64,000 nucleotides of DNA from an uncultured bacterium (lineage in GTDB: Bacteria; Babelota; Babeliae; Babelales; Babelaceae): the NCBI GenBank assembly GCA_963722385.1, contig CAVRKK010000002.1, positions 320,001 through 384,000 on the forward strand, read 5' to 3'. A model generated the notes under the pieces. It made no database searches, had not been told where the DNA came from, and was given only the letters and a program-made list of their open reading frames with translations. Of this stretch, positions 31,801-60,915 are shown piece after piece. The translations under genes and the position numbers were made by a program. Numbering within the stretch: position 1 is the first letter of the stretch; each line of letters opens with the position of its first letter.

Positions 31801-32925
31801 ACCAAGTTGAATAGTGCCGTTAATGCCAGCTTAGCTGATCTTGCTGCTCGCTGGAAGCAAGCGATGATTGCTGGTAAAGAGACTGCCAGTAAAGTAGCAT
31901 GGTACAGCGCAATTCCCGCTGCTGTTGTTGCTTTCTTTGCCACTAAAATAACGGTACAGGCGGGAGCGCCGATAATTGGCGGAACTATAGGCAGCGCCAT
32001 TGGACCCGTAGGTACCGTAGCAGGCGCAACTATAGGAAGCATGGTGGGCGGTGTGACCGGCGACGTTGCTGCTCTCTTTACTGCTGCTGGTGCAGGAGCA
32101 AGCTTGTACCTCCTTTATGCAACCTTAAAGCCAACCGAGCAAGACTATGAAAAATTAAACGAGCTTCTTTTTAAAGCGGGCTATGTGCCTGAATATATTC
32201 AAAAAGACCCGGGACTTTGGAATAAGGCGGTGGAGAAAATGAAAAGCTTGTTTTCATCTGAGGTCACTAATATGGTCAGGAATGCAGAAAAAGTAAAAGA
32301 GGGCGTTGATCAAAAAATAGCTTGGGCCAATAAAGCACAAGAAGAGCTTTATGCGCAGCTTGGCCTTGAACCCAATGCGCGAGCCGCCGCGGTTGAAGCT
32401 GGCTTTAAGCAAAAAGAAGAAGCGCTCAAAGGTCGGCTTTTCTTAAATCGGTGGCTTACCAAAAAGAACTTAACGCGAGACTATCGCCGTATGCTTAAAT
32501 GCCATATCGAAGCACGCCGCGCCCAAATAGAATACAACAGTGTTCTTGTTGACATAGCTACTAAAATTATGGCTGATGTAGCACGGGAAAATACCGGCAT
32601 CCTCGATGGCATCTGGAATTTAATTTGGGGTGCTAAAGAGGGAACACAAGAGAAACCAACCGCTGACAAATTGATCCAAACGGCGCGCGACACTATCGAT
32701 GTATATCGCCGCCAAGTGGCCGATCTTATAGCTCTTGAAGCAATGATTGAAAAGGAGGCGGAGGACATTGGCAAAGCTGATCCTTTTGGTAAAGGAAACA
32801 CGTTAATTGACGCATTTAGAGATCAGTTTAATAGTAGGGTCAGCAACTTAGAAATATCATACGTCGATAACGTTAATCTTCTGCTTGAGTCTCAAGGTAA
32901 GAAAACGCTCAGCCTCCCTACCTAA
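28882..32925 (+). CDS. Giant secreted coiled-coil protein with C-terminal Gly-rich hydrophobic hairpin (family A)
   Basis: Signal peptide (AHA-QE); E/K/Q/L-rich helical composition; AIPAAVVAFF...GGTIGSAIGPVGTVAGATIGSMVGG...LYLLY. Confidence 0.85.
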   Translation: MKQLNVICVSAFLCCSLLVRLAHAQEIETPEELSARKAHLEKEQGQLEQKLLLAQRENKPEEVLKIENQKKQIAQQLKKIDEEESRAVPVVSPTTPSNQVPIVVTKAGSEQDVLQAPDIISWQKAWEAFAEQPGRLWGKGGALFAATSPGERAQNIVEIIKKLPDNFTANQSIDALSLIAQQALDMKNKNYFTPDEANRDYGRIIKALAKKLGQVIENAHYQDQSPEQVNQLLMTILKKIKADPQFERLIQTTIVTKMVEYLKTMPLQGDSANILSSFKDIIDTYLTLSKGIVLAEIHNHAIQTALAEIIEKITEPVANLSFEQGLNTLKDIAESEKAKALSKKMPQLSHIFVITANRLLSNELSNHSLTRDISPLTQPGQTEEQKEALYLNAYVKEVDLLNKYLIFTKKNGASKTDPEFQAAARRLSRINDFMNEQKDLPETQANKQLFNNLNKAIFKVLDTLVDEGGIMGVLEHDTEFESKEEEQSKLFNRLSALPEDMLAGMDQEAKNVLEQMSKTTDQKKLKELYDNLEAIYVNLTEPLIEEKDKSYSLKDLLSESADLTNLNSLTEQIEKALGPRKEVLQKNVKRLITIRDRFNEILPELTKSDLANITAHGKELGQQKQDLEQITEHAVPEGMVPEFQRTYGQVEAWTDIIDAAEAYNALTKAPAQLTEQEKETIGQVYVTVTKAFAGIPVSLDYDQEKIFTDRLEAMKKQQEALDKLTSLVREPKATIGGKEYDLLQVADFIKKLAYHFEKLSSQQLDDLEKSGFLIHDVREGQTYYRPSDRGLYLVSIADTLNDVERRAKQLDEYQKQHASGVEPSLQMLSPTGRPIEIAEAYRLQLLILDDQVDVLQYLYRRNILENKVEEAISGVVNTTAIDNPPPLAKIDKTELLNDISDLLSVREESVNPYFEALIESEAYIESLPQKEQAEARKAAGLTTWVMRIIGLSDPEAVFSADEATITQEVKEIYTKLNSAVNASLADLAARWKQAMIAGKETASKVAWYSAIPAAVVAFFATKITVQAGAPIIGGTIGSAIGPVGTVAGATIGSMVGGVTGDVAALFTAAGAGASLYLLYATLKPTEQDYEKLNELLFKAGYVPEYIQKDPGLWNKAVEKMKSLFSSEVTNMVRNAEKVKEGVDQKIAWANKAQEELYAQLGLEPNARAAAVEAGFKQKEEALKGRLFLNRWLTKKNLTRDYRRMLKCHIEARRAQIEYNSVLVDIATKIMADVARENTGILDGIWNLIWGAKEGTQEKPTADKLIQTARDTIDVYRRQVADLIALEAMIEKEAEDIGKADPFGKGNTLIDAFRDQFNSRVSNLEISYVDNVNLLLESQGKKTLSLPT

Positions 32926-33002: not shown

Positions 33003-36000
33003 CTAAAGCTCTGCTGGAACTGGTGCTGTCGCATAATTCACCGAGCCACCCGTGCGATGACGGTTAACAAAATATTTATAGGCAAAATAACCAGCGATAC
33101 CAGCTACAACTAACCCAGTAAGACCAGCAACCCCACCTACAATAGGTCCTGCGATTATAGCGATATTGGTCGAACCGCCATCACCTGAATTTTCTTGGCC
33201 CGCATTACTCAACCCAAAGACTTGGGCAATTGATACGTCATCAGAGTAAAAATTAGCAGTAGCAACAAGCGAGCTTCCATCTTCGGCGAGTTGCGGTGAA
33301 AAGACTATTGATACGCAATCCATGGAATCGCCTGGCAGAACATATGATGTACTGTTATGTATTATGCCGTTTGTTGTTTGCAAAAGAGCAATGGTACTCG
33401 AGCCACTGTTAGCGGTGGCAAACTGCGAAGCATCGGGCGAAAGAGCAATTGAACCAGGTTGGGCATTGCCTTGCGGTAGCTGGCGAGACTGGCCGTCGGA
33501 CAGCGAATTTCCTTGAACAAGGAAAAGAGAAATATCATCTGACCCACTGTTTGCGGCAACAACCACCGTGTTGCCATTGCTGTCCAAGAAAGAAATAACA
33601 GAAGCGGGGACGGAAGACCCGGTTGGTAGTGGCTTTGAACCGCTGTAATCTAACAGCCCATTTACAAGCTTAAAAAGCGAGATATCGTGCGACTTCGCAT
33701 TGGCAGTAACAAGGAAGTTGCTATCGGGTGTAAAGGTCAAAGCTACCGGTTGCGTAGAATTTATCAAAGAGTAAGAGAGGGGATTCTGCGGTGTTCCTGC
33801 AACTACTTTAAAGATTGTTACATCACTCGAGTTGCTGTTGGCGGTTGCAAGATAGGCATCATTTGGCGAAAAAGCAATTGCAACGGGAACGGTAGAGCCA
33901 GCGGGTAGTGTATACGAGCTAGCGTCAGCAAGCTTTCCAGCTACCATGTTAAAAAGAGTCACATCGCTCGAGTTACTATTAGCCGTTGCTAAGTAGCTGC
34001 TATTTGATGAGAAAGTTATCCCCTTAGGGTTTAACGAGCCGCCAGGGAGCGGATACGAAATACCCGGCAAGAGAGTGGTTGATTGAGCAGTTGCATTTAT
34101 TGCAAATAACGTCACATCATGTGAGTTATAGTTTGCTGTTGCTAAATATTGACCCTTGTTTGAAAATACAAGTGCATTAGGGCCTTGAGACTCTGGTGGT
34201 AAAGAAATAGAAGTTAACGGACTTTGAAAGCTACCGCACGTAAAAATTGTTATCACATAGGGGTTGTAGTTAGCCGTGGCAAGATACGAACCGTCTGATG
34301 AAAAGGCTAAGGATTTAGGGGTACTATAACCACCGGGTAAAGCATAAGAAGCGCTTTCTGACAATATTCCTGCTGCTCCCACGCTAAATATTGTTATATT
34401 GTTTGAGCTATTAGCAGTAACGAGATATAAACCATTTGGCGAAAATGCAATTGAGGTAGGCGCAAAAGAACCATTCGGTAAGGTATAAGATGTTTGTCCT
34501 GACAATATTCCTGCTGAGCCTACTTGAAACATTGTTACATCATGTGAGTTGTCATTAGCAGTAGCAAGATATAAACCATTTGGCGAAAATGCTATTGATT
34601 CAGGTTGAGCTGAGCCACTCGGTAAGGCATACGTGGTTCCTCCTGATAACCCCCCATTTGTCCCAACCTCAAAAATTGTTACGCTACTTGAGAGATAATT
34701 AGCAGTAGCGAGATAGGAACCATCGGGTGAATATGCAACTGAATAAGGGCCTGAATTGATTGTGGGCAAGGCATAAGAAATTGCCCCCGATAATGCCCCG
34801 TCTGGTCCAACCTGAAATATTGTTACATCATTTGAACCAAAGTTAGCACTGGCGAGATATAAACCATTCGGCGAAAATGCCACTGAGTATGGTTCAGAAG
34901 AACCTGAAGGCAGTGCATAAGAGATAGCATTACTCAGAGCACCCTCTGCCCCAACGGTAAATATTGTTACATCATTTGTGCTATGATTAGCAGTGGCAAG
35001 ATATGAACTGCTTGGAGAAAATGCTATTGAATAAGGATAACTATAAGCATTTGGCAAGCTATAAGATGTTCCTCCTGATACAACTCCATCCGTGTCTACC
35101 TGAAATATACTTACATTATCGGGAATACTATTAGCAGTAGCAAGATACAAACCGTTTGGTGAAAATGCGATTGAATAAGGATACGTAGGGCCGCTTGGTA
35201 ATGAATAAGAAGTTGCTCCAGATAATGTCCCTCCTATTCCCACTCGAAATACTACTACATCGTCGGCATCAGGGCTGGCAACAGCAAGATATAAGCCATT
35301 TGGTGAAAAGGCTATTGAATCACCATCATTGATGTATGGTAAGGAATAAGAGCTGCTCATTGATAAAGCTCCATTCGTACCTACTTGAAAAATGGTTACA
35401 TTTGAGGTATCAACAACGGCAAGATATGAGCTGTTTGGAGAAAAGGCCAATGAAGAAAGCCAACTGCCTGATAAAGCATACGAGGTTCCTCCTGATAATG
35501 CGCCTCCTGTTCCTACCTGAAAAATTGTTACATCATTTGAGTTATTACTCGTAGCAAAATATGAACCATTTGGAGAAAACACCAATGAAAGAATGCCAGA
35601 AGAACCACTTGGTAAAGCATAAGAAGCTCGGCCAGATAATGTTCCATCTATACCTACTTGAAAGATCGTTACAGCGCTCGAGTAATTATCAGCAGCAGCA
35701 AGATATAAACCGTTGGGAGAAAATGTAACTGAATAAATATAGCCAGAACCAGATGGCAAAGCATAAGAAGTTCCTCCCGATAATGTTCCTCCCATATCTA
35801 GTTGAAACACGGTTACATCATTTGAGGCATTAGCAGTAACAAGATGTAAACCATTAGGCGAAAATGCTATTGAAGAAGGCGATACAGAACCGAGCGGCAA
35901 AGAGTAGGAAACAGCATTTGATAACACTCCAGCATTTACCTGAAATAACGTAATATTGTTTGAAAAGGTATTAGCAGTGGCCAGGTAAGAGCCATTAGGC

Positions 36001-36278
36001 GAAAATGCTATCGATGCAGGGCTGCTGGCCCCAAATGGCAAGATATATGAAGTGCCATTTGACAAAGTGCCTCCTGCGCCTACAGCAAATACAGTTACGC
36101 CCCCGGTGGCAGTAACAACATAAGAACCATCAGGTGAAAACGCTATAGATTGAGGAGCTAGTCCCGCAGGGGAAGCATAGCTTGTTCCCGTTAGCCTGCA
36201 GATAGCCTGCATAGCAGGGCTAGAGAGGATAACAAAAGCTACCAGTAAAGCGGGGCACTTAAGGAAAAATTTAGGCAT
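33003..36278 (-). CDS. Surface beta-propeller repeat protein (21 blades) with C-terminal TM anchor
   Basis: Signal peptide from MPKFF (GGAG RBS); ~45 aa repeats SIAFSPNG.YLATAN..SNDVTIFQV; C-terminal TM IAIIAGPIVGG...YFAYKYF. Confidence 0.9.
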   Translation of the reverse strand: MPKFFLKCPALLVAFVILSSPAMQAICRLTGTSYASPAGLAPQSIAFSPDGSYVVTATGGVTVFAVGAGGTLSNGTSYILPFGASSPASIAFSPNGSYLATANTFSNNITLFQVNAGVLSNAVSYSLPLGSVSPSSIAFSPNGLHLVTANASNDVTVFQLDMGGTLSGGTSYALPSGSGYIYSVTFSPNGLYLAAADNYSSAVTIFQVGIDGTLSGRASYALPSGSSGILSLVFSPNGSYFATSNNSNDVTIFQVGTGGALSGGTSYALSGSWLSSLAFSPNSSYLAVVDTSNVTIFQVGTNGALSMSSSYSLPYINDGDSIAFSPNGLYLAVASPDADDVVVFRVGIGGTLSGATSYSLPSGPTYPYSIAFSPNGLYLATANSIPDNVSIFQVDTDGVVSGGTSYSLPNAYSYPYSIAFSPSSSYLATANHSTNDVTIFTVGAEGALSNAISYALPSGSSEPYSVAFSPNGLYLASANFGSNDVTIFQVGPDGALSGAISYALPTINSGPYSVAYSPDGSYLATANYLSSSVTIFEVGTNGGLSGGTTYALPSGSAQPESIAFSPNGLYLATANDNSHDVTMFQVGSAGILSGQTSYTLPNGSFAPTSIAFSPNGLYLVTANSSNNITIFSVGAAGILSESASYALPGGYSTPKSLAFSSDGSYLATANYNPYVITIFTCGSFQSPLTSISLPPESQGPNALVFSNKGQYLATANYNSHDVTLFAINATAQSTTLLPGISYPLPGGSLNPKGITFSSNSSYLATANSNSSDVTLFNMVAGKLADASSYTLPAGSTVPVAIAFSPNDAYLATANSNSSDVTIFKVVAGTPQNPLSYSLINSTQPVALTFTPDSNFLVTANAKSHDISLFKLVNGLLDYSGSKPLPTGSSVPASVISFLDSNGNTVVVAANSGSDDISLFLVQGNSLSDGQSRQLPQGNAQPGSIALSPDASQFATANSGSSTIALLQTTNGIIHNSTSYVLPGDSMDCVSIVFSPQLAEDGSSLVATANFYSDDVSIAQVFGLSNAGQENSGDGGSTNIAIIAGPIVGGVAGLTGLVVAGIAGYFAYKYFVNRHRTGGSVNYATAPVPAEL

Positions 36279-36522
36279 GTATTGATCTCCTGTTAGAGCT
36301 TGTCTGCAAATCGAAAGAAGAAAAAAGCTCATTTTTTCTTTCGAGAACATTATCGCTCATTTTTTTAATTTTTTATAGGGTACATTTGCTAAGTTGCATG
36401 AGGTACTGATGAGACTCAGAAGTGATTAAAAGCATATCACGAGCTATATAGTCATGCTAAATTGGTAGAGCGTCAAAGAAATGCAACATTAATGCTGTTA
36501 TTTTTGTATGGTGAAGGCACGC

Positions 36523-36552
36523 AGGGTCGGTCGGGATCAACCGACCGACCCT
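36523..36552. terminator. Stem-loop downstream of collagen-like gene
   Basis: AGGGTCGGTCGG-GATCAA-CCGACCGACCCT, perfect 12 bp stem. Confidence 0.6.
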
Positions 36553-36583
36553 ATCTTATGATCGCATTGAGTGCTTGATGGCC

Positions 36584-38800
<2,217 letters not shown>

Positions 38801-39334
38801 CTGCCTCTCCTTTTTTGTAAATTGTTTCTTGGCTTCATCAACGATTGAGCTTGCCTCAAAAATAGCTGATCGGGATCTCCTCTGTTTTTAAAAATTCTAC
38901 TTCATGCAGCAGAAGTATTTCAAATATCTCTTACGGTACTTTAATGCTTTGTTGCTATTTTCGCTCATATTACTTCCCGTATTTCTCATAACTAGGAGTC
39001 AACTGCCAAACGGCCTAAAAGTCGTGGCTTGCAGCTAAACACAGATGTTTGCTACGATAGGCTCATTGACTGATCCGGCCTTCGTAGCCTTACTCAGTAA
39101 TACACCAGTATTCTCTTATATAAGCTTTAAATATAGACATGCTTATCTCTCCTTAGCGCCAGCCTGCAACTGGTGCTTCTTATCTGCTTAATGATCCCTA
39201 GATTATCAGCTTTATTTTTTTTGACTAGGAGCAGGTTGCTTCTTTAAACAAGCGAATGCTCAGCGTATTGATAGTGTTTAAGCCAAAAAAAGAGAATATG
39301 CACAATTACTTGTTTTTAAGATATAGTAAGCTTT

Positions 39335-39606: not shown

Positions 39607-39865
39607 AATAGGTAGTACTCCTTTGCTCTCTCTTTTCGATGGAACTATATTACTAATAGTGATTTTGATAAAATGATAGATGTCCGGTTCGAGTTCTCAG
39701 AAGTTGTGCACACCATCAAGAATCGAGAATCGTTGCTGATGAAAATAATTTGCTTAATCAATAAATATCGGGTAATATTCAATAAATTAAAGCGAGATAG
39801 GCAAGAAGTAAGGACTCGGTAGTAATGAGGGGTGTACGCAACCTTTTATTACGAGGACTGGCTTT

Positions 39866-42800
39866 ATGTTTATTAAGGCTTTCATACGGCATGCTCTTGT
39901 CTCTATTTTTTCTCTATTAGCAATAATATTTTGTCGAGCAAGCACGGAGCCCCGGGAGGGCTACCACGTAATTATTACGCGTGACGAACCGGCATCCCGC
40001 CACATACCTAAGCTGCGCGGCCAAGAGAGCCCAGAAAAAGCAACACACTGCAAGATCATGAAGAATGGTGAGCAGATTGCGCAGGCTGATGTTGTACATG
40101 AGGTGCGCGGTAAGTTCAAACAAACGGAAATGGCGAAGCCTTTTTCGCTCATAGACGCTCGTAATTTGCAGATACGCTTTCAGGAAGGTGATAACTGTTT
40201 TCATTTGTCGGTGGATCTCAAAGGCGATATCGCGATTCACCAACTTGAGATGGCTGATTCATTTTCGCTTGAGGTATCTGGCAGTAGCAGCATTACCAAC
40301 CAGACGCCGATTTCGCTTAAGAAAGACTTAGCGATTACTATGCCTCGAGGTGTTTTTTGGAGCGGCAGTAAGGCCCACTGGCATGTTGGCGGCCAAGCTG
40401 ACCTATCGTTTGAAGAGGGAGCGGTGGCGATTTGGGGAAGCTTTGATTCAACGGGTGATCTACGTATCAAAGCAAACCGCTATACACAGCCCTATGGCAA
40501 AGCGCAAAGAACTGAGGGTAACCGATACCGTGCTACCAATAGTAACGGATATCCCTGGACATGTGTTGAGTATGATATGGTATCGCCAAAACGCTCATTG
40601 GTGAGGTCGCAGGGGAATATCTCCCTTACTGCCAATCATGTTGGTATTTACGGCGGTATTCTGCATGCAAAAGAAAATATTATTGCTGATATTGACCAAA
40701 AGTTTGAGCTTCTAACGCAGTGTAATGATCATAAGCGTTGTGAGACCTATAAAGAAGATACTGGCTGGATCTTCAAAAACATGGTTACCCGAGCAGTGGC
40801 TGATTACTTTGAAAGCTGCGACGATGTAGCAATCCTGCAAGCGGGCAAAGATTTCAAGCTCATGCTTCAGGGCCAGCCGGTGAAGATACATGATATCAAG
40901 CACTATCCGGCATTTGAAAGCACAGGCCAGATTGTTATTGGGCAAGAGGCTCATGTCTCATCATCAAACAAGCAAGGGGTTATGCATAATCATAAGTCCG
41001 ACGTAGATGATCTGAGATCTTATGGCCCAATTTCTCTCTCATTTGCTCAGTTTATCGATCCCACCACTACCATTCTCTGTAATGACCCGCGCTTTATCTT
41101 TACCCATCCTTCACAAAAAGAGAGCACAGAAGAATGGCAGCCTGGCAATGAGCTTGCATTTTTTCATGGCACAACTTTGAACAAACCAGCTATGCTTCTC
41201 TCTTTTAGTTCTCAGGTAGAGATACTCTCTCGGCTTTTATTTGAGCTCGGCCTTCCCGCACTTGGGGGCGAAGGTGACTTTGCTACCCAACTCCGGGAGC
41301 TCCAACGTGCTGGCTATCTCGTAGCCCTTGTCAATGGTAGGAAAATAGGAAACATGAAGAAAAGGGAGCCGCTACCACGGGGACACAATAAACCGCGAAA
41401 GTCGTTGAAAGATCAGCCGCAAGAAACCAAGGTCGAATTGGCTGAGGAAGAAAAGCAAGAGCTCGCCAGACTTCTCAAGCGCTACAGCCATAAAATTAAT
41501 GGTTATCCTTCATGGCTCAAAAGCAAAATGACGGACGTACAAGAAGGCCAAAATCTTGGAATACTCACGCAAGAGCTTATACATGAGTTGCCATTTTCAT
41601 TTATCTATTACCAGGTTCAAAAATTCGATGGTGTTGATTGTTTAGTCCCTGTCCTTCATGTGTGTGCAGCAGACCGTGATGCCAATAAGCGTATGGGCTC
41701 TTTTCTTGCTCATGATGTTACTATTGATAAGATGCATCGAGTCGTCAACAAGGGCATGATTCGTGCCATTAATCGTGTAAAGATACAAGCAGATACGATT
41801 ATTAACAAAGCCAATAAGGTAAAAAAATACTCCGTGCGCACGCCGTTAGAAGGCGGTGATATTATTGGCTTTGATATCGAGCTTGAAGTTCCCCAAGATG
41901 CCGTTGGTAAAGCGGGTATTAAGAACATTGGTGGCTCTATTGTGGGCAAGCAGAAAGTATCGCTCTATGCCAAGCAGGGAGACATCACCAACACGGTTCT
42001 TTTGGGAAGCCATACCGTAACGTGGGACCCTGGCTTTTTTGGCAGGCTCTTTGGCCATCAAAGCTCTTCGGAAATAGTAGATTTTTATCCAGGAAACATT
42101 ACTTCTGAGGGCAATATTGAGCTTATAAGCGAGACGGGCAAGCTGTTTAATGAGGGATCGAAAATTATTGGCGCTCAGAATGTCCAGTTGAAAGCATACG
42201 GTGATGCCGTCTTTAAAACACTTACCAACAAGCATACATCATATAGCGGTACATCGCTGCAGGGCTTTTCGGTTAAGCAAGTGGTCAAAGAGGCGATGAC
42301 TATGGAGCGCTCAGAGATAGGTGCTGGAAAGAATCTTACGGTAGAGTCTACCAATGGTTCAATCAAAAGCTATGGTGCTTCTTTTACTGCCATCCGTGAT
42401 GCCTTGTTTAAGGCAAAAAAGAGTAATGATCTTGCCGTAGTGACCACAACGCTTAAAGGCGAGCAGAAGCAGCTGGGGCTTAATTTGTTTGGGCTCTATG
42501 CTACCAGCAAAAAGCATCTGAAGGACCATATAGTCAAAACAGAGATTAATGTTGGTGGCAAGGTAACCTTTGAGTCGGGCGAGGACAATGTGCTTGAGGC
42601 AGTGGTTGTGTATGCAGGTCAATCTATTCACTTAATCGCCAAGCGCAATAATATTATCAAAGGCGCCAAAGAGCGCTCATCATCAATGACTGATAGCTGG
42701 TCATTCGGTGTGACCTTTTTTGGCTCAGATGCTCTCGGTTTGCTTGCCGACGAAGAATATCGCAGAGCTTTGTGGGCGCTCAATGATGAGGACCCACTGC

Positions 42801-45181
42801 TTGCCTCTATTCACCGACTTGCCAGTTCGGCAAGCACTGCTGACACCCTTGCAAGCACAACGATGATGGGTATTGAGGCTTTGCGCTTGTTTAATCAGTA
42901 CAAGCAGAAAGAAGGAAGCACCGGCAAGTTCTTGGCCGTGCGGTTGGGTATTGCCGATGCACAAGGCTCCTTCGCGCCTGATTTATATTTCAATATTGCA
43001 CATGATACCATACGCCGCGAGCAAACCATTACGGTGCCGAGCCATATTTCTGGTCAAGAAGTCCATATCGAGAGTGGCGATGATGTTCAGCTTGACGGAA
43101 CAACCCTAGAAGCCGAGAAAGCAACCATTAAGGGACAGAACTTCCAAGCAACTGCAGCACAACATACGGTCACCGTTAATCAACAATCACAAAGTGTTGG
43201 TGTAACGCTTAGTGGTACCGTTGACGCATCAAAGCAGACAAGCACTTCATATACGGTGACGCATGATAATGCGCAGATAAACGCCGATACCATCGTCATT
43301 GATGTCAAGAATGCAGAGCTCAAAGGAGCCCGGGTACAGGGCATCTCTACAACCATTAATGTTGAGCATAACCTGATGGTGGAATCAGTTGAGGATACGC
43401 ACTATAGCTTTTCGAGCGGTGCTAGTGCCTATGTTGGTTCAGCGGCTGGTGGCGCATATTATGCTCAAAAAGAGACCTATGAACATAAAGTTAGCCAAGC
43501 TTCAGGTATTGAGGGCACCGAGCATCTTGAGGTGCACGTCGGCGATACGATAGATCTCACGGGCGCTTATATAAGCAGTGACTCAACCAACGCCACCGTC
43601 AAAGCTCGCCACCTCGCTTCTGAAGATATTCATGAAGGCAAAGAAACGCGCGGCTTTAGTGTTGGTGGTAGCTTTATACCTAATGGTGATGACCTTGGTC
43701 TCTATGGCATGATCGATGGGCGCTATACTTCTAAGTCGAAAGACGGTATTACACGGGCAACCATTTCCGAAAACATAGACCTTGATATTTTGGGTGCCGC
43801 GATTGCCGAGTTAAATCGCAATATGCGCATGATGCAAGAGACATATGTTGAAGATGAAACAGTTATGCGCTTGGTGATACCAATCATCAACCCGTCAAAG
43901 TTTGCCCAGAAGATGCAGCGCATTAAAGAGTTATTTGCTGAAGACGGCAATAACCTCGACGCCATCAATCAAACAATGAAAGAGGCTGCAGCGGAACAAC
44001 GAGAAGAGATTAAGCAGCAAGCGCGGGATGCTGAGGAGAAGCTTCTTAACGAGTTCCTTGAGCAGAAAAAGAAGCAGGGAGAGCCGTTTACGTCACATGA
44101 AGCAGAGTTCGCCGAAAACATGGCATCAGGGCAGCCTGCAGAAAAAAGTGAAGATCTCAAGGACGTGCTCAGGGAAAATTTTGATCAAAAATATCCTGGT
44201 ACCGAGGGATACGCTGCACAACGTGAGGATGAGGACCTCGAAGAGATTAATCTCGATGACCAAGCAGGTGAGCGAACTTGGGAACAGCCGGTTGAATCAG
44301 CCGCATCAGAAGAAACAGCAGATTTCGTAGAACTAAACGACTTGTATGACATCTATGAGTTCAACAGGCAAGACGGTGATACTACCATAACAACAGATGT
44401 TGCTCAAGATTCACCGGGAATGGACGATCAGGAATCATCGGATGCTTCAGACGTTGCTGAACAAATTTACCAAGAGCTTGAAGATATTTGCGAATCGCAG
44501 GCGAACCAAGAAATGCTCTATGATGAGTCACCCTCATTCGTTCGACCATTCTTATCGACCATGCTCGACTTCGTACCGATTGTAGGCAACGTTAAATCTG
44601 CCGCTGAGCTTGGCCTTGGCCGGGATTATATAGGAGGACAAGATATTGGCTATGGCGAACGCGCCTTGCGCACCGCTGCTGTTATATTTCCCTATGTAAA
44701 ACACTTAAAATTTGTTAGAACAGTACTGTGGCCCGTCAAATTCTTGGCAAACAAGACAGGCAAGAAACTAAAAAATCTGAAAGATAAGGCGGCTTCTGCC
44801 ATCCTAAGGCCATTGGCAATAAATGCTGCTCGCCTGGGTTTTATCGAGCTTGGTGGAGAAGCTGGCCATATCGCAACAAAAGAAGCCGCCGAAAAAATTG
44901 CTGCTGCATTTAAAGGAGCAACTCTAAAAGGAGCTCAAGGAAAAGGATGGAAGGTCAAGATTCCAAACGGGAAAAAGGAATTTACTGTTAGAATTATGGA
45001 AGCCGGCTCTGGTGGGAGAATGGAACCTTATTTTAGGATTGGCATCAGTGGCGAATCAGCTTTAACTTCAGCCGGACAGCTTATGGCAGATCCTAAATTA
45101 ACTCACTTCGATTTGACAAGTAATTATCTTATCCAAATTCAAGAAATGATTTCACAATACAAGATAAGGTATAAAAAATGA
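39866..45181 (+). CDS. Haemagglutinin-repeat polymorphic toxin 2
   Basis: Close paralogue of 17429 with a divergent tip of the same family. Confidence 0.85.
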   Translation: MFIKAFIRHALVSIFSLLAIIFCRASTEPREGYHVIITRDEPASRHIPKLRGQESPEKATHCKIMKNGEQIAQADVVHEVRGKFKQTEMAKPFSLIDARNLQIRFQEGDNCFHLSVDLKGDIAIHQLEMADSFSLEVSGSSSITNQTPISLKKDLAITMPRGVFWSGSKAHWHVGGQADLSFEEGAVAIWGSFDSTGDLRIKANRYTQPYGKAQRTEGNRYRATNSNGYPWTCVEYDMVSPKRSLVRSQGNISLTANHVGIYGGILHAKENIIADIDQKFELLTQCNDHKRCETYKEDTGWIFKNMVTRAVADYFESCDDVAILQAGKDFKLMLQGQPVKIHDIKHYPAFESTGQIVIGQEAHVSSSNKQGVMHNHKSDVDDLRSYGPISLSFAQFIDPTTTILCNDPRFIFTHPSQKESTEEWQPGNELAFFHGTTLNKPAMLLSFSSQVEILSRLLFELGLPALGGEGDFATQLRELQRAGYLVALVNGRKIGNMKKREPLPRGHNKPRKSLKDQPQETKVELAEEEKQELARLLKRYSHKINGYPSWLKSKMTDVQEGQNLGILTQELIHELPFSFIYYQVQKFDGVDCLVPVLHVCAADRDANKRMGSFLAHDVTIDKMHRVVNKGMIRAINRVKIQADTIINKANKVKKYSVRTPLEGGDIIGFDIELEVPQDAVGKAGIKNIGGSIVGKQKVSLYAKQGDITNTVLLGSHTVTWDPGFFGRLFGHQSSSEIVDFYPGNITSEGNIELISETGKLFNEGSKIIGAQNVQLKAYGDAVFKTLTNKHTSYSGTSLQGFSVKQVVKEAMTMERSEIGAGKNLTVESTNGSIKSYGASFTAIRDALFKAKKSNDLAVVTTTLKGEQKQLGLNLFGLYATSKKHLKDHIVKTEINVGGKVTFESGEDNVLEAVVVYAGQSIHLIAKRNNIIKGAKERSSSMTDSWSFGVTFFGSDALGLLADEEYRRALWALNDEDPLLASIHRLASSASTADTLASTTMMGIEALRLFNQYKQKEGSTGKFLAVRLGIADAQGSFAPDLYFNIAHDTIRREQTITVPSHISGQEVHIESGDDVQLDGTTLEAEKATIKGQNFQATAAQHTVTVNQQSQSVGVTLSGTVDASKQTSTSYTVTHDNAQINADTIVIDVKNAELKGARVQGISTTINVEHNLMVESVEDTHYSFSSGASAYVGSAAGGAYYAQKETYEHKVSQASGIEGTEHLEVHVGDTIDLTGAYISSDSTNATVKARHLASEDIHEGKETRGFSVGGSFIPNGDDLGLYGMIDGRYTSKSKDGITRATISENIDLDILGAAIAELNRNMRMMQETYVEDETVMRLVIPIINPSKFAQKMQRIKELFAEDGNNLDAINQTMKEAAAEQREEIKQQARDAEEKLLNEFLEQKKKQGEPFTSHEAEFAENMASGQPAEKSEDLKDVLRENFDQKYPGTEGYAAQREDEDLEEINLDDQAGERTWEQPVESAASEETADFVELNDLYDIYEFNRQDGDTTITTDVAQDSPGMDDQESSDASDVAEQIYQELEDICESQANQEMLYDESPSFVRPFLSTMLDFVPIVGNVKSAAELGLGRDYIGGQDIGYGERALRTAAVIFPYVKHLKFVRTVLWPVKFLANKTGKKLKNLKDKAASAILRPLAINAARLGFIELGGEAGHIATKEAAEKIAAAFKGATLKGAQGKGWKVKIPNGKKEFTVRIMEAGSGGRMEPYFRIGISGESALTSAGQLMADPKLTHFDLTSNYLIQIQEMISQYKIRYKK

Positions 45182-45639
45182 ACAATTTAAATCTAACTAA
45201 TGAACTAAATAAACTTTGGGAAGGCAGAATTCTAAATCTTGAGTTTGATATCCTTCACCATAAAATTAAGTTCAAAATAAAAGTATATAGACCAGGAACA
45301 AGGGATGAACAATTTGATATCTATAACGTTGTTTTTTCTGGGGTTTCATCTTTTTACTTTTTGCAAAATACAGATGAAGATAGATTTAGGACATATGATC
45401 CAGATCCGGGAGATACAACGGAACTGACCACCATAGGTTACTATAAAGATGGTATTGGAAAAATTAAAATCGTGACTCGTGAGGGAGATGAAGATGCTGG
45501 ATGGGCAAGCCAGTGGTACTCATCGGCAAATTTTGCCCTAGAGCTCGATCCATCAGCATTATTTATCGAAGCCAGAAGTATAACCATAAATGATAAAACC
45601 TATGAGGTAGGCTATCCCCTAGATGAAGGAGGTTTGTAA
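45178..45639 (+). CDS. Cognate YxiG-like immunity protein
   Basis: ATGA overlap with toxin 2; protein identical to 27316. Confidence 0.8.
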   Translation: MNNLNLTNELNKLWEGRILNLEFDILHHKIKFKIKVYRPGTRDEQFDIYNVVFSGVSSFYFLQNTDEDRFRTYDPDPGDTTELTTIGYYKDGIGKIKIVTREGDEDAGWASQWYSSANFALELDPSALFIEARSITINDKTYEVGYPLDEGGL

Positions 45640-45816
45640 CGTCCAATAAAACGAGCTTCTGACTATTACATGCTTCATTTTGTTGGTATCTGACAAAAAA
45701 TCTGTTATTATCAGAAATAATATCGCTAGATTATTTAAAAAATTGCCAAATGCTAATAAACATGCTAGTTTGATGGATATATTTATCTTTTATTATATAA
45801 AACTGAAAGGACTTTT

Positions 45817-46617
45817 ATGGACATGAGAAGTCTTAGAATCACAGGCCTGTCTCTCGTACTCGCTCTTGGTAGCTGGCAAGCAACCGCGATGGAAGCTCCT
45901 GGTCACGAATCGAGCAGCGATGAGGAAACAAGCGCAAAAGAATACTCCCCCGAGGAAGCGGAACAGGGCAGAAAGCTTATCCAAGCGATTCATTTTGAAG
46001 AGACGGATCTTATTTATGCCTTAATTGGCGCAACGCCAGCTATCATTAACTACCAAGACCCAGAAACGGGCAATACACCACTTTTAGAAGCAATGGAAGT
46101 CTCTAGCCGTCCAATAATTAAGCTTCTCATTCAAAAAGGTGCTGATCCTTCGATAAAAAACGCTCAAGGCTTTCCGCCAGTTTTCATTGTTCTTAAGAAG
46201 TGGAGTGAACGTGAAGAGCTTTTAAGGGTACTGATTTCTTATAATATACAAGCTTGTGACGCACGTGGTCCTAATGGCCAAACAGCATTGCAATACGCTG
46301 TTGAACATAATTTACCCGAAACAGATGTCCTCTTGCGTTTATGGGCTGATATTAATGCGCAAGATGACAGAGGATGGACGGCTTTGCACTATGCTGTGGC
46401 ACAAGGCAAGAGCATAGCCGTAAAATATTTGATTGAACAAGGTGCCAACCCTAATATCCGGAGCTTTGATGGCGACGGAAATCGTACAGCTGATATGGTT
46501 ATTAATCCTGATACAGCAGGGAGAAGAGGTCCTATTATGGCGAGGGCCATCTTGGCAGCCCAACAAAGCTATGGAAAAGGATGGTTTAGCAGTATTAGAA
46601 GCCTCGTTGGTTTGTAA
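45817..46617 (+). CDS. Signal-peptide ankyrin-repeat protein (family A, copy 4)
   Basis: Paralogue of 57..860. Confidence 0.92.
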   Translation: MDMRSLRITGLSLVLALGSWQATAMEAPGHESSSDEETSAKEYSPEEAEQGRKLIQAIHFEETDLIYALIGATPAIINYQDPETGNTPLLEAMEVSSRPIIKLLIQKGADPSIKNAQGFPPVFIVLKKWSEREELLRVLISYNIQACDARGPNGQTALQYAVEHNLPETDVLLRLWADINAQDDRGWTALHYAVAQGKSIAVKYLIEQGANPNIRSFDGDGNRTADMVINPDTAGRRGPIMARAILAAQQSYGKGWFSSIRSLVGL

Positions 46618-46643
46618 TTTACTTCAGGTCTTAGTTAATCTTT

Positions 46644-46670
46644 AAGCCAGCACCTTGTGCTGGCTTTTTT
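46644..46670 (+). terminator. Intrinsic terminator
   Basis: AAGCCAGCAC / GTGCTGGCTT stem followed by a T run. Confidence 0.75.
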
Positions 46671-46741
46671 ATTTATATTGCAATTCATGATACATATTAA
46701 TTATAATTATTTTAAATAGCAAATTAAATCAGGAGTAAGTA

Positions 46742-49700
46742 ATGAAGCAGCTAAACGTAATTTGCGTTTCAGCTTTCTTATGTTGCAGTTTCCTTGTTCC
46801 TCTAGCATATGCCCAAGAAGGTGAAATTCCAGAAGAGCTATCGGCTAGGAAGGCTCACTTAGAAAAGGAACAAGGACAACTTGAGCAAGAATTACTTTTA
46901 GCTCAACGAGAAAACAACCCAGAAGAAATTTCAGCTATTACAAGCCAGCAAAATCAGGTTGCTCAACAGCTTAAAGAAGTAGCTCAAGAGGAATTACAAG
47001 CAGTTCCTGTTATCTCCCCACCAATACCATCTGACCAAGTGCCAATTGTAGTCACGAAAGCGAAAACTATTACTGAACAAAATGTTCTTCAGGCATCTGA
47101 TATAACAAGCTGGCAAAAAGCTTGGGAAGCATTTGCTGAACAACCTGGCAAGCTTTGGGGCAAAGGTGGCGCTTTGTTCACAGCGGTTCCTGCTGAAGAG
47201 AGAGCTCAAAATATGATTAAAATTATAGAGAAATTGCCTGAAAGCTTTAGCGCTAATCAAACTATTGATGCTCTTTCTTTTATAGCTCAGCAAGCCTTGG
47301 ACATGAAAAATAAGAATTATTTTACGCCTGGCGAGGCTGACCATGATTATGGCCAAATAATGAGAGCTTTATCTAATCAGCTAGGCCAAGTTATCGAAGA
47401 CAGCCAGTTTAAAAATCATGACCCTGAGCAAGTGAATAAATTGCTTATAACGATTCTCAAAAAAATTAAGGTAGCTCCTCAATTTAAAAATTCAATAGAA
47501 GTTATGATTGCTCGTAAAATAATTGATTACTTAGAGACTGCTGGATTTAAACAAGGGACCTCAAATGTTTTACAAAGTTTTACCGACATAGTAAATGATT
47601 ACTTGGAAATCTTGAATGGTGTTGCTTTATCCGAAATTCATAATCACGCGATTCAGAATGCTTTGGTGGAAATCATTGAAAAGAGAACAGAGCCTCTTGC
47701 TGACCTATCTTTTGAGCAGGGACTAAAGATTCTTTTTGAGATGGCCGAAGATAAAGATGCCAAAGCATTATCCAAAAAGATGCCACAGCTTTCCCATATA
47801 TTTGTTATTACTGCGAATCGACTTTTATCGAACGAATTAAGCAATCATAGTTTAACACGCGATATTTCACCGCTTACGCAACCTGGCCAAACAGAAGAGC
47901 AGAAAGAAGCATTATACCTGAATGCTTATGTTAAAGAAGTGGACTTGCTCAATAAATATTTAATTTTTACCAAGAAGAATGGCGCCAGCAAAACAGACCC
48001 AGAATTTCAAGCAGCGGCACGAAGGCTTTCTCGCGTTAACGATTTTATGAATGAACAAAAGGATTTGCCAGAAACACAAGCCAATAAGCAACTTTTTAAC
48101 AAGCTCAATAAGGCTATTTTTAAGGTGCTCGACACGCTGGTCGATGAAGGCGGCATCATGGGTGTTCTCGAGCATGATACAGAATTTGAGTCAAAAGAAG
48201 AGGAACAAAGCAAGCTTTTCAATCGGCTGTCTGCGCTTCCTGAAGATATGCTCGCTGGGATGAATCAAGAAGCTACCAGCGTACTTGAACAAATGAGCAA
48301 AACTACTGACCCAAAAAAGCTCAAAGAGCTTTATGATAACTTAGAAGCTATCTATGTGAATCTCACCGAGCCACTAATCGAAGAGAAGGGTAAAAGCTAT
48401 GGCTTAAAAGATTTGCTTACTGAATCGGCTGATCTTGCAAACTTAAGTAAGCTTACCGAACAAATCGAAAAAGCCCTTGGGCCTCGAAAAGAAGTACTCC
48501 AAAAGAATGTTAAGCGCCTCGTAACGATAAGAGACCGCTTTAATGAAATATTGCCAGAGCTTAAAGAATCTTCTCTTGCAAATATCACCGCCCATGGCAA
48601 AGAACTTGGTCAGCAAAAACAGGATCTTGAGAAAATAACAGAATATGCAGTACCCGAAGGGATGGTGCCAGAGTTTCAACGTACCTATGGGCAGGTAGAG
48701 GCATGGACGGACATCATCGACGCAGCTGAAGCATATAAAGCGTTAACTAGTGCGCCTGCTCAATTAACCGAGCAAGAAAAAGCAACTATTGGCCAAGTGT
48801 ATGTAACCGTAACCAAAGCTTTTGCTGGCATTCCTGTTTCTCTCGATTATGATCAAGAAAAAATATTTACCGATCGTCTTGAGGCTATGAAGAAGCAACA
48901 AGAAGCATTGGATAAGCTTACGAGTCTCGTGCGTGAGCCAAAAGCAACGATTGATGGCAAAGAGTACGATTTGCTGCAGGTTGCGGGCTTTATTAAAAAG
49001 CTTGCTTATCGTTTTGAGAAACTTTCGTCACAGCAGCTTGATGATTTAGAAAAAAGTGGCTTTTTGATTCATGACGTACGAGAGGGTCAAACATATTATA
49101 GGCCAAGTGATCGTGGCCTTTATTTAGTCAGCATTGCTGATACGCTTAATGACGTTGAACGCCGCGCAAAGCAGCTTGATGAATATCAAAAGCAGCATGC
49201 TTCTGGTATAGAGCCAAGCCTTCAGAGACTCAGCCCTACGGGGCGACCTATCGAAATTGCAGAGGCTTATAGACTGCAGTTGCTTATTCTTGATGATCAG
49301 GTTGATGTTCTTCAGTATCTCTATCGTAGAAACATTCTCGAGAACAAGGTTGAAGAAGCAGTTTCTGGTGTTGTTAATACTACTGCTATCAATAACCCGC
49401 CGCCACTGGCCAAAATTGATAAAACAGAATTGCTCAATGATATAAGTGATTTGCTCTCCGTAGCACGTGCCGAGTTAAGAAAGGAATCAGTCAATCCCTA
49501 TTTTGAGTCACTTGTTGAAAGTGAAGCTTATATTGAGTCGTTACCTCAAAAAGAGCAGGCGGAAGCACGCAAGGCAGCTGGCTTAACAACCTGGATTATG
49601 CGCATTATTGGCCTCTCTGATCCTGAGGCAGTTTTTACCGCTGATGAGGCAACTATTACTGAAGAGGTCAAAGATATCTATACCAAGTTGAAAAGTGTTG

Positions 49701-50803
49701 TTAATGCCAGCTTAGCCGATCTTGCTGCTCGCTGGAAGCAAGCGGTGATTGCAGGCAAAGAGACAGCCAGTAAAGTAGCATGGTACAGCGCAATCCCCGC
49801 CGCTGTTGTTGCTTTCTTTGCCACTAAAATAACGGTACAGGCGGGAGCGCCGATAATTGGCGGAACTATAGGCAGCGCCATTGGACCCGTAGGTACCGTA
49901 GCAGGCGCAACTATAGGAAGCATGGTGGGCGGTGTGACCGGCGACGTTGCTGCTCTCTTTACTGCTGCTGGTGCAGGAGCAAGCTTGTACCTCCTTTATG
50001 CAACCTTAAAGCCAACCGAGCAAGACTATGAAAAATTAAACGAGCTTCTTTTTAAAGCGGGCTATGTGCCTGAATATATTCAAAAAGACCCGGGACTTTG
50101 GAATAAGGCGGTGGAGAAAATGAAAAGCTTGTTTTCATCTGAGGTCACTAATATGGTCAGGAATGCAGAAAAAGTAAAAGAGGGCGTTGATCAAAAAATA
50201 GCTTGGGCCAATAAAGCACAAGAAGAGCTTTATGCGCAGCTTGGCCTTGAACCCAATGCGCGAGCCGCCGCGGTTGAAGCTGGCTTTAAGCAAAAGGATG
50301 AAGCGCTCAAAGGTCGGCTTTTCTTAAATCGCTGGCTTACCAAAAAGGACTTAACGCGAGACTACCGTCGTATGCTTAAGTGCCATATCGAAGCACGCCG
50401 TGCCCAAATAGAATATAACAGCGTTCTTGTCGACATAGCTACCAAAATTATGGCTGATGTAGCACGAGAAAATACCGGCATCCTTGACAATATCTGGAAT
50501 TTCATCTGGGGTGCTAAAGAGGGGACAGAAAAACCAACCGCGGACAAGCTGATCCAAATGGCGAGCGACACCATCGATGTGTACCGCCGCCAAGTGGCCG
50601 ATCTTATAGCTCTTGAAGCAATGATTGAAAAGGAGGCGGGGGACATTGGCAAAGCTGATCCTTTTGGCAAAGGAAACACGTTAATTGACGCCTTTAGAGA
50701 TCAATTTAATAGCAGGGTTAGCAACTTAGAAACCTCATATGTCGACAATGTTAATCTTCTGCTTGAGTCTCAAGGTAAAAAAACGCTCAGCCTGCCTACC
50801 TAA
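46742..50803 (+). CDS. Giant secreted coiled-coil protein with Gly-rich hydrophobic hairpin (family A, copy 2)
   Basis: Close paralogue of 28882. Confidence 0.85.
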   Translation: MKQLNVICVSAFLCCSFLVPLAYAQEGEIPEELSARKAHLEKEQGQLEQELLLAQRENNPEEISAITSQQNQVAQQLKEVAQEELQAVPVISPPIPSDQVPIVVTKAKTITEQNVLQASDITSWQKAWEAFAEQPGKLWGKGGALFTAVPAEERAQNMIKIIEKLPESFSANQTIDALSFIAQQALDMKNKNYFTPGEADHDYGQIMRALSNQLGQVIEDSQFKNHDPEQVNKLLITILKKIKVAPQFKNSIEVMIARKIIDYLETAGFKQGTSNVLQSFTDIVNDYLEILNGVALSEIHNHAIQNALVEIIEKRTEPLADLSFEQGLKILFEMAEDKDAKALSKKMPQLSHIFVITANRLLSNELSNHSLTRDISPLTQPGQTEEQKEALYLNAYVKEVDLLNKYLIFTKKNGASKTDPEFQAAARRLSRVNDFMNEQKDLPETQANKQLFNKLNKAIFKVLDTLVDEGGIMGVLEHDTEFESKEEEQSKLFNRLSALPEDMLAGMNQEATSVLEQMSKTTDPKKLKELYDNLEAIYVNLTEPLIEEKGKSYGLKDLLTESADLANLSKLTEQIEKALGPRKEVLQKNVKRLVTIRDRFNEILPELKESSLANITAHGKELGQQKQDLEKITEYAVPEGMVPEFQRTYGQVEAWTDIIDAAEAYKALTSAPAQLTEQEKATIGQVYVTVTKAFAGIPVSLDYDQEKIFTDRLEAMKKQQEALDKLTSLVREPKATIDGKEYDLLQVAGFIKKLAYRFEKLSSQQLDDLEKSGFLIHDVREGQTYYRPSDRGLYLVSIADTLNDVERRAKQLDEYQKQHASGIEPSLQRLSPTGRPIEIAEAYRLQLLILDDQVDVLQYLYRRNILENKVEEAVSGVVNTTAINNPPPLAKIDKTELLNDISDLLSVARAELRKESVNPYFESLVESEAYIESLPQKEQAEARKAAGLTTWIMRIIGLSDPEAVFTADEATITEEVKDIYTKLKSVVNASLADLAARWKQAVIAGKETASKVAWYSAIPAAVVAFFATKITVQAGAPIIGGTIGSAIGPVGTVAGATIGSMVGGVTGDVAALFTAAGAGASLYLLYATLKPTEQDYEKLNELLFKAGYVPEYIQKDPGLWNKAVEKMKSLFSSEVTNMVRNAEKVKEGVDQKIAWANKAQEELYAQLGLEPNARAAAVEAGFKQKDEALKGRLFLNRWLTKKDLTRDYRRMLKCHIEARRAQIEYNSVLVDIATKIMADVARENTGILDNIWNFIWGAKEGTEKPTADKLIQMASDTIDVYRRQVADLIALEAMIEKEAGDIGKADPFGKGNTLIDAFRDQFNSRVSNLETSYVDNVNLLLESQGKKTLSLPT

Positions 50804-50918
50804 AAAAATGTTTAAGAAAGGCTTTCTTTAGAGAATACTATTTTTTTAACTCTTAAAGGGGAGATGCGCTCATAACGCACCTCCCGGTAAGTTTTTACTG
50901 AATTTAGAATTTAGCTTC

Positions 50919-50986
50919 CTAGAGCTCTGCTGGAACTGGTGCTGTCGAATAATCCACCGAGCCACCCGTGCGATGACGGTTATCAA
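50919..50986 (-). pseudogene. 3' remnant (~22 codons) of beta-propeller gene
   Basis: Near-identical to 33003-33070 (RHRTGGSV.Y.TAPVPAEL*). Confidence 0.8.
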
Positions 50987-59947: not shown

Positions 59948-60915
59948 TGGTCGGCTTGATCGGTTTAGGTCGCATGGGTCAATCTATAGCGGCGCGCCTT
60001 CTTTACGGAGGTTTTGACGTCATTGGTTACGATAAGTATCCCCCACAAGAACTCGATACCAACATACCGGGCGAATCTCGCAGCAAGCAGGCCCATTTTA
60101 TTCAAGCTACGAGCATCGAAGAGCTTGCCCATAAGGCCACGCTCATATGGCTTATGGTACCTGCAGGCAAGCCAGTCGACGATGTCATTCAAGAAATACA
60201 TCCGCATATCGTGCAGAAAGATAAAGAGCAGCGAGCGGTAATTGTTGACGGCGGGAACAGCTTTTTTAAGGATTCGCTTCGCCGCTTTGCATTTTTAAAG
60301 CAACAGGGCATTGAATTTGTTGATTGCGGCACATCGGGCGGTCTTCATGGACGCATGCATGGGTTTTGCCTCATGGTTGGGGGCACCCACGAAAGCTACC
60401 TCAAGTGCGAGCCGGTGCTGCGCGCTCTTGCAGCCAAGAATGGGCATGCGCATGTTGGGCCCGCAGGAGCTGGCCATTACGTGAAGATGGTACATAATGG
60501 CATTGAATATGCCTTACTCCAGGCCTACGCGGAAGGCTTTCAGATTTTGAAAGAAGGACATTACAAAAATCTCGATTTAGCAAATATAGCCGATCTGTGG
60601 AATCATGGGAGTATTATCAGGTCATGGATATTAACATTGACAGAAGAAATCTTTCAGCAGAATCAGGAACTTGAACATGTTGTTGGCACCATTCAGGAAA
60701 GCGGAACCGGCTTATGGACCGTCGAGGAGGCCAAAGAGCAGGCAATTCCCGTTCCGGTTATTGAACAAGCGCTGCACATTAGAGCCGAATCACGAAGAAC
60801 GGGCGGCACGTATGCAACCAAATTAGTATCGCTGTTACGCCAAGCGTTTGGTGGTCACGCGGTAACTTTTGTTTCAGACAAGATGCAAGCCACGAGGAAA
60901 CCAGATAACGAGTAG
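59947..60915 (+). CDS. gnd: 6-phosphogluconate dehydrogenase, decarboxylating (short type)
   Basis: GLGRMG, MVPAG, DGGNS, GTSGG, GHYVKMVHNGIEY, LRQAFGGH. Confidence 0.96.
   Translation: MVGLIGLGRMGQSIAARLLYGGFDVIGYDKYPPQELDTNIPGESRSKQAHFIQATSIEELAHKATLIWLMVPAGKPVDDVIQEIHPHIVQKDKEQRAVIVDGGNSFFKDSLRRFAFLKQQGIEFVDCGTSGGLHGRMHGFCLMVGGTHESYLKCEPVLRALAAKNGHAHVGPAGAGHYVKMVHNGIEYALLQAYAEGFQILKEGHYKNLDLANIADLWNHGSIIRSWILTLTEEIFQQNQELEHVVGTIQESGTGLWTVEEAKEQAIPVPVIEQALHIRAESRRTGGTYATKLVSLLRQAFGGHAVTFVSDKMQATRKPDNE

Follow-up and report, generated by a model that had tools for sequence, protein, structure and literature searches.

The DNA analysed here (the window, a stretch of 64,000 nucleotides, G000:C2:320001-384000) belongs to the genome of an uncultured bacterium of the Babelota, G000, which comprises 1.60 Mb with 43% GC in two contigs. 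Between positions 39748 and 50803, the window carries four genes in one orientation that encode a CdiA-like polymorphic toxin, a YxiG-like immunity protein, a secreted ankyrin protein (ank1) and a large helical secreted protein (CC1). The four-gene unit recurs at three distant places of the genome; its complete and partial copies are lettered A to F, the present locus being copy C. Our preferred reading, to which we assign a probability only slightly above one half, is that this order is a lineage-specific duplication unit in a conflict and effector region and not a conserved delivery operon, and that it joins two separable units, a CdiA-like toxin without CdiB and an ankyrin/membrane-inserting effector pair, which were duplicated together in G000. 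The order is found in one of three genomes (G000 only) and is kept in neither of the two relatives, G001 and G008, where gene order, orientation and neighbours all differ. The copies within G000 are 83–97% identical at the DNA level and are duplications of one unit, not independent occurrences. The lineage of G000 is probably a small-genome parasite of protists, an assignment that follows solely from its placement in the Babelota (Dependentiae/TM6); the genome carries ATP/ADP translocases in tandem.

A sequence-only reading of the window had proposed the order toxin, immunity protein, ankyrin and large protein at 39748-50986 and, with inserted cassettes, at 17429-32925, and the open reading frames (ORFs) bear out both the order and the identities given to the four products, the last being a membrane-hairpin protein. 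In copy C, a conserved leader and promoter region of ~120 nt (39748–39865, + strand), which is the 5′ end common to all five toxin copies, precedes the toxin gene (39866–45181, +). Its product of 1771 amino acids (aa) starts with a hydrophobic signal peptide, and the Atlas clusters nearest to its N-terminal region are proteobacterial filamentous haemagglutinin (FHA)-like proteins (score 0.92–0.93). The protein continues through haemagglutinin repeats (Fil_haemagg_2, E 3e-23, best stretch aa 1101–1183), an acidic spacer and a PT-TG pre-toxin domain (aa 1562–1616, E 1e-8) to a tip of ~110 aa, so that repeats and pre-toxin domain lie ahead of the tip as in contact-dependent growth inhibition (CDI). 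The immunity gene (45178–45639, +; 153 aa; YxiG-like, E 5e-38) overlaps the toxin stop by 4 nt, and its product has no signal peptide.

Alignment of the toxins revealed the conserved N-terminal scaffold and exchangeable C-terminal tips of a polymorphic toxin. Copies A, B and C share one tip class (the YxiG class, 65–75% identical); copies E and F and a cassette at 25188 share a second class, which BLAST did not match to the YxiG-class tip; and a toxin relative in G008 represents a third, ending in Ntox35 and followed by TPR-like proteins and cassettes. An immunity gene stands directly downstream, namely a YxiG-like gene after the YxiG-class tip in G000, G001, G008 and a Bacillus cereus plasmid, and a CdiI_ImmP-like gene behind the second tip class, and orphan tip/immunity cassettes lie at 24981–27777 of the window, in copy E and in an array of G008. 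On the B. cereus plasmid (CP128120.1), the tip of an RHS protein is 40% identical to that of the window, and the gene next to it is also YxiG-like. This pairing, shared by G000, G001, G008 and B. cereus, argues strongly, at the level of sequence, that tip and YxiG-like protein are likely to be a true toxin–immunity pair. The tip itself gave no Pfam family, no relative of solved structure (best E 0.71) and no phage match. The G008 array (L029:3884-15461, −) contains the Ntox35-ended toxin, a TPR-like putative immunity array and Ntox35 cassettes, together with a cassette of the second tip class and its CdiI_ImmP-like gene. A protein of 1862 aa in another genome (G021 L031:7238-12826, +), with a signal peptide and C-terminal haemagglutinin repeats and neither toxin tip nor YxiG gene, is possibly an adhesin relative.

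No transporter of the CdiB/ShlB family (PF03865) was matched in G000, G001 or G008, genomes that are 90–93% complete, and the control genomes likewise gave none. Throughout the phylum set of 261 genomes (those listed all small, and scored with as few as two candidates per genome, so that distant relatives may be missed), this profile produced weak matches in 25, mostly to BamA-sized frames of 820–900 aa, which suggests that this profile would also have picked up a genuine CdiB. Two Omp85 frames (833 and 955 aa) are present in G000, as are two adjoining secretin genes; two gspD copies are reported for TM6 in the available part of its description (PMC4776705). The two-partner secretion (TPS) domain PF05860 was matched neither in a scan of the toxin protein nor in the three genomes, in a genome search whose control matched nowhere; since aa 30–640 of the toxin lie near FHA-like clusters in Atlas features, a divergent TPS domain is possible. 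The toxin would be exported by the Sec pathway via its signal peptide and could cross the outer membrane by housekeeping machinery, for which either Omp85 protein or the secretin pair would be a candidate. It would then enter neighbouring bacteria, probably related ones in the same protist host, through its own haemagglutinin-repeat and pre-toxin region as in CdiA, whose tip is brought into the target cell by its FHA-2 and pre-toxin region, according to the accessible portion of a CDI paper (PMC9086364); the corresponding region is retained in the G000 toxin. The cytoplasmic tip would be neutralised by the translationally coupled immunity protein.

Linkage in the relatives and the case for a proposed delivery system

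In G001, the toxin–YxiG pair lies at 755–760 kb and an ankyrin–ankyrin–CC1 group at 790–797 kb, ~30 kb away and upstream of the pair, and ~17 kb of the interval are core genes that are syntenic with a different region of G000; a remnant of CC2, a paralogue of CC1, lies on the opposite strand, 2.8 kb beyond the immunity gene. The complete toxin of G008 is on contig C4, where the 46 kb examined around it contain no CC gene; on C1, two CC genes have 27.5 kb of other genes between them and the 3′ end of a second toxin, which is cut by the start of that contig. The linkage of homologues to toxin genes elsewhere, on which the sequence-only reading had staked its proposal, is thus missing as an adjacent order (0/2 relatives) and present in a looser form, within ~30 kb in both. 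As the secreted neighbours sit apart from the toxin in the two relatives, they are probably not its delivery machine.

One alternative is that CC1 is a dedicated export or translocon component, which either takes the place of CdiB or helps the toxin through vacuole or target membranes, with ank1 as a periplasmic or extracellular adaptor. Such an arrangement would be an undescribed delivery system of obligate intracellular bacteria, in which a CdiB-less toxin is helped by a hairpin protein of ~1350 aa with a J-like segment and by a secreted ankyrin, and it would let parasites inside one protist kill co-infecting competitors. Beyond the missing CdiB and TPS matches, several observations speak for it and weigh against our reading of two separable units. 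Strong matches to toxin and CC coincide in 3 of the 261 phylum genomes, namely G000, G001 and G008, and each of the two relatives has a CC gene or remnant no more than ~30 kb from a toxin-tip/YxiG pair; by a rough simulation, the chance of such linkage is 0.002 in G001 if both CC loci are required to fall within 30 kb and 0.045 if only the full gene is, and it is about 0.07 in G008. Within G000, ank1 and all or part of CC1 come after four of the five toxin genes (the one without the pair being copy F), all five ank1–CC1 pairs sit behind an immunity gene or its remnant, and the ends of the duplicated unit fall close to gene boundaries, beginning ~120 nt before the toxin and, in copy E, stopping at the CC1 stop codon. 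No hairpin stronger than −6.9 kcal/mol occurs in the five immunity-to-ankyrin spacers, and toxin–immunity transcription may read into ank1. The long helical hairpin predicted for CC1, with its hydrophobic tip, would be translocator-like in outline. Genomic context, moreover, is available for two relatives only, and we infer how the toxin is exported, which membrane CC targets and whatever CC and ank1 do.

Against a delivery system stands the RpoB tree (quick method, 31 family genomes), which places G000, G001 and G008 in one clade with an SH-aLRT support of 100, so that the co-occurrence of toxin and CC counts as one event. Shared ancestry of the conflict region explains the loose linkage equally well as joint function does. 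In addition, the search of G008 gave no ank1, a terminator and a separate promoter-like site precede CC, the toxin retains the region that moves the tip in CdiA, and there are at least three old CC lineages with different neighbours. The type III export gene FHIPEP was matched in none of the three genomes, in a search whose control matched in 4 of 14. The delivery system that had been proposed is mostly, but not fully, contradicted, the order being kept in neither relative within a single clade; as the linkage persists loosely and no transporter was found, we regard a delivery role as unlikely but worth keeping in view.

Excluded from the phylum counts were G021, matched in the repeat region only (its 1862-aa protein lacks both tip and YxiG), G172, matched at the tip alone (E 7e-5), and G156, G020, G120, G236 and G245, whose CC matches are short (E 3e-5 to 1e-3). 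No relatives of toxin or CC emerged from pattern scans of metagenome contigs (196 and 600 candidate stretches), and 168 candidate stretches in genome contigs contained no CC relative; the toxin scan of genome contigs returned two toxin loci and no additional genome, word-based protein searches returned near-identical copies only, no RNA run was listed among 9 runs, and the contigs of 4 DNA runs were too short for reading linkage.

The ankyrin ank1 and the large protein CC1

The ank1 gene (45817–46617, +) encodes 266 aa with an N-terminal hydrophobic 'AME'-type signal. Ankyrin proteins account for 108 of the 1285 ORFs of G000, and 86 of the 108 carry a crudely predicted signal peptide, the class to which ank1 belongs; for Chromulinavorax, the available part of the published account gives 98 ankyrins, 78% with a signal (PMC6561590). 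Orthologues of ank1 in G001 (38% and 29% identical) lie directly upstream of CC1, and in G008 a search for an orthologue gave generic ankyrin matches only, both CC genes there having upstream just a divergent ankyrin that is not an orthologue. In G000, 71 of 1283 ORFs (5.5%) have a co-oriented ankyrin before them, and the ankyrin–CC adjacency seen for two lineages in G000 and also in G001 exceeds this base rate. The suggestion that the ankyrin might be a cytoplasmic chaperone was rejected because of its (crudely predicted) signal peptide. A complex prediction for ank1 with CC1 aa 25–780, run without folded controls, scored 0.00.

The terminator and separate promoter reported between the two genes are both present. 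An intrinsic-terminator-like hairpin (46644–46666, +; −15.7 kcal/mol, with a T run) is followed by a sigma-70-like site, TTGCAA-18-TATAAT (46678–46707, +), which is a consensus match only (10/12), and then by CC1 (46742–50803, +; 1353 aa, beginning with a signal peptide). Terminator-like hairpins with a T run occur in all eight ankyrin-to-CC spacers (−13.6 to −19.5 kcal/mol), which indicates that CC is probably a transcription unit of its own.

CC1 matched no Pfam or NCBIfam family above the cut-off. A profile of its C-terminal 756 aa found 38 representatives at E ≤ 0.001, 32 at 1e-10 and 22 at 1e-30, counted among 50%-identity representatives with the query's own included. The alignment holds 22 records, 19 of which cover aa 1012–1088, and in 17 of these 19 an uncharged, Gly/Ala-rich hairpin of ~77 residues (aa ~1012–1088) is kept. 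The N-terminus is hydrophobic in 15 of 19 records, the four misses being N-terminally cut pieces, and several relatives start with the same 'ME' signal motif. A J-like segment (aa ~1160–1215) aligns to two J domains of G000 (hhalign 72%; non-overlapping windows ≤2.2%), with the HPD motif absent from every alignment row. The label 'coiled-coil' originally given to the protein fits in part: a crude heptad scan flags three stretches (aa 734–764, 797–825 and 1122–1169), but AlphaFold models (pLDDT 62 and 66) display helical bundles and a long helical hairpin, at whose tip lies the hydrophobic stretch, itself modelled with low confidence. Foldseek found no match at E ≤ 0.001 for either model; its non-significant rows (ClyA pore E 0.65, SmhB pore E 1.2) and the VIA-align results (best Z 10.9 and 9.1, both to helical proteins of a generic kind; Z 7.3 for the N-terminal region of IpaB) are not counted as evidence, and Atlas look-alikes of aa 600–1353 all scored under 0.8. 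In the CC tree (19 of 29 rows), CC1 (G000, G001; 38% identical to each other), CC2 (G000 and one G008 gene) and the other G008 gene form separate lineages. One record, P0029, joins a CC-family fragment to a PD-(D/E)XK nuclease domain (PDDEXK_9, E 2e-19) and may be a fusion or an assembly artefact.

Under the reading of two separable units, ank1 and CC1 would belong to the secreted effector pool of the lineage. CC1 would insert its uncharged hairpin into a membrane, probably that of a host vacuole or organelle, by analogy with effectors of the Inc/LegC type, and ank1 might be its partner. A second alternative, which we consider similarly improbable to the delivery system, makes CC a membrane-damaging, pore-forming weapon of a conflict island, directed against bacteria or host, with the ankyrin as its periplasmic immunity protein or partner. 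The persistence of the hairpin would suit such a weapon, as would the export of both proteins, the presence of a second toxin-like pair (275 aa and 1294 aa) near the toxin in G000 and G001, and the co-oriented ankyrin that immediately precedes CC at three loci from two CC lineages (ank1–CC1 in G000 and G001, ank2–CC2 in G000), set against the 5.5% base rate; ankyrin immunity proteins are known for Tox-AHH, in the portion of the survey accessible to us (PMC3482391). However, an immunity role sits poorly with the divergent ankyrins upstream of the G008 CC genes, with the terminator between ankyrin and CC, and with the fact that ankyrins bearing this type of signal are the bulk effector class of G000, and the C-terminal part of CC is conserved among copies and accompanied by no cassettes.

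Copies of the unit and neighbouring genes

Copy B consists of a toxin gene (17429–22756, +; 1775 aa, 87% identical to copy C), its YxiG-like immunity gene (22753–23196, +), an ank1 copy broken by an in-frame stop (23371–24198, +) and an IS200-like transposase gene (24315–24785, +). Two orphan cassettes follow, the first with a broken second-class tip and a CdiI_ImmP-like immunity gene (24981–26582, +; immunity gene 25809–26582) and the second with a broken YxiG-class tip and a YxiG-like gene (26696–27777, +), whose product (27316–27777) is identical to that of 45178–45639. The copy ends with a further ank1 (27955–28758) and CC1 (28882–32925), both within 27955–32925 (+). Proteins of copies B and C are 87% (toxin), 64–100% (immunity), 81% (ankyrin) and 88% (CC1) identical. 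In copy A (57–1367, +), ank1 (57–860) is followed by a CC1 truncated to its N-terminal ~120 aa (984–1367), and directly behind it stands a transposase gene with DDE_3 (1357–2424), presumably of the IS630 type; the toxin predicted to lie just upstream of the window is indeed there (G000:C2:314192-319429), with a YxiG-like gene behind it (319426-319878). Elsewhere on C2, copy D (836–846 kb) retains tip and immunity remnants, ank1 and CC1, copy E (864–877 kb, minus strand) contains a frameshifted toxin, cassettes, ank1 and CC1, and copy F (1242–1249 kb) has toxin and immunity genes without ank1 or CC1.

The ~120 nt upstream of the toxin are common to all five toxin copies and sequences diverge beyond them, the copies having different flanks. 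Across all 22 copy pairs, dS is 0.11–0.61 and dN/dS 0.16–0.31, with dN/dS at 0.21–0.31 for the toxin (6 pairs of 4 intact copies), 0.17–0.27 for ank1 (10 pairs of 5 copies) and 0.16–0.27 for CC1 (6 pairs of 4 copies). The copies are thus under purifying selection, with dN/dS ~0.2, and the four-gene unit would be kept by selection on its genes. Tracts of 99–100% identity between copies suggest gene conversion. In the toxins of copies C (39866–42500) and A (C2:314192-316900), the first ~800 codons are 100% identical and the portion near the tip ~76–90%, which is a recent gene conversion between old copies. The last alternative, recent neutral segmental duplications or assembly artefacts without function, could draw on the copies broken by stops, frameshifts or insertion sequence (IS) elements and on the 100%-identity tracts, but it is largely refuted by the dN/dS values, and we consider it very improbable; the dS values, the different flanks and the finding that runs from two further studies also contain pieces of toxin and CC variants speak against it as well.

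Among the further ankyrin/large-protein pairs that had been listed, the one at 57/984 stands, in truncated form, and those given at 9221/10033 and 11046/11854, whose genes start at 9221/10027 and 10980/11848, are distant paralogues. This ank2/CC2 set (9221–16655, +) includes ank2 at 9221–9865 and 10980–11687, a CC2 fragment of 144 aa (10027–10461, +) and a CC2 gene split by a frameshift near 12170–12192 (11848–12171 and 12192–16655, +). BLAST of ank2 against the ankyrin at 45817 gave no match at E 1e-4, CC2 is 25–27% identical to CC1, and the pairs stand behind a 1294-aa gene, not behind a toxin–immunity pair. Within 10027–10555 (+), the last 41 codons of the 1294-aa gene are repeated behind the N-terminal CC2 fragment, and this repeat marks a small tandem duplication that also copied ank2.

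The 1294-aa gene belongs to a group at 2855–8734 (+), in which two 275-aa genes precede it, and which also occurs at G000:C2:1248.9-1251.2 kb and G001 L018:6219-10845; among the 261 genomes, these genes are present in G000 and G001 (plus one weak match), each time within ~10 kb of a haemagglutinin toxin. The 1294-aa protein has a signal peptide, a hydrophobic stretch (aa 747–765) and a conserved motif set, ARG..E, D and E.KD at aa ~436–507, which we take to be restriction-endonuclease-like. The motifs were compared with the Tox-REase table as given in the accessible part of the survey (PMC3482391), and on sequence grounds the 275-aa and 1294-aa genes are a candidate second toxin with an upstream immunity gene.

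Between copies B and C (33003–38800, −) lie genes for a beta-propeller protein (1115 aa) and a collagen-repeat protein (738 aa), shorter copies of which are also found behind copy D. A segment of 233 nt (38699–38931, +), 98.7% identical to G000:C2:639137-639368, is a possible small mobile element. At 58568–62062 (+), genes for glucose-6-phosphate dehydrogenase, 6-phosphogluconate dehydrogenase and a clostripain-family peptidase follow in succession.

Comparison with known systems

The translocators IpaB/YopB, the pore formers of the ClyA family, the chlamydial Inc proteins and the Legionella LegC proteins have long helices flanking a hydrophobic Gly/Ala-rich hairpin. CC resembles them in this respect and differs in its Sec-type signal, its length of 1200–1550 aa and its J-like segment, and the searches run linked it significantly to none of these proteins, either by sequence or by fold. 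The conserved hydrophobic hairpin by which type III translocators (SctE) and ClyA are recognised is present in CC and is common to many unrelated membrane-inserting proteins. CC defines a family that matches no curated entry of Pfam or NCBIfam, and its membrane hairpin and its J-like segment are directly testable. A search of the open-licence literature, whose supplements may list such genes, yielded no published account of a Dependentiae polymorphic toxin or hemagglutinin or of a Babelota effector of this kind. With the secreted ankyrin effectors of the Dependentiae, as described in the available portions of two reports (PMC6561590, PMC4776705), ank1 shares the signal-peptide ankyrin design found in ~86 others in G000, but it differs in having a fixed neighbour, CC1, in two genomes.

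The toxin locus resembles CDI (CdiB/CdiA/CdiI), as presented in the accessible portion of that paper (PMC9086364), in its signal peptide, haemagglutinin repeats, pre-toxin domain and variable tip, and likewise in its adjacent immunity gene and orphan tip/immunity modules. It differs in that neither a CdiB in G000, G001 and G008 nor a Pfam TPS match was found, that the pre-toxin domain of the G000 toxin is PT-TG instead of VENN, and that its 1771 aa are at the small end of CdiA sizes; moreover, the CDI accessory genes named in that portion, BcpO and CdiC, include neither an ankyrin nor a helical membrane protein. On a conservative reading, the locus is a CdiA-like toxin–immunity–cassette system in presumed obligate intracellular protist parasites with no CdiB found, and it raises the question of how an FHA-type protein passes the outer membrane without TpsB. 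As in polymorphic toxin systems at large, following the available part of the survey by Zhang et al. 2012 (PMC3482391), a constant trafficking N-terminus carries exchangeable tips that are shared across phyla. The same part describes the toxin-like proteins of amoeba endosymbionts as mostly lacking immunity genes and as host-directed; in contrast, G000, a presumably obligate intracellular bacterium, carries full toxin–immunity–cassette arrays, which suggests warfare among bacteria within a shared host.

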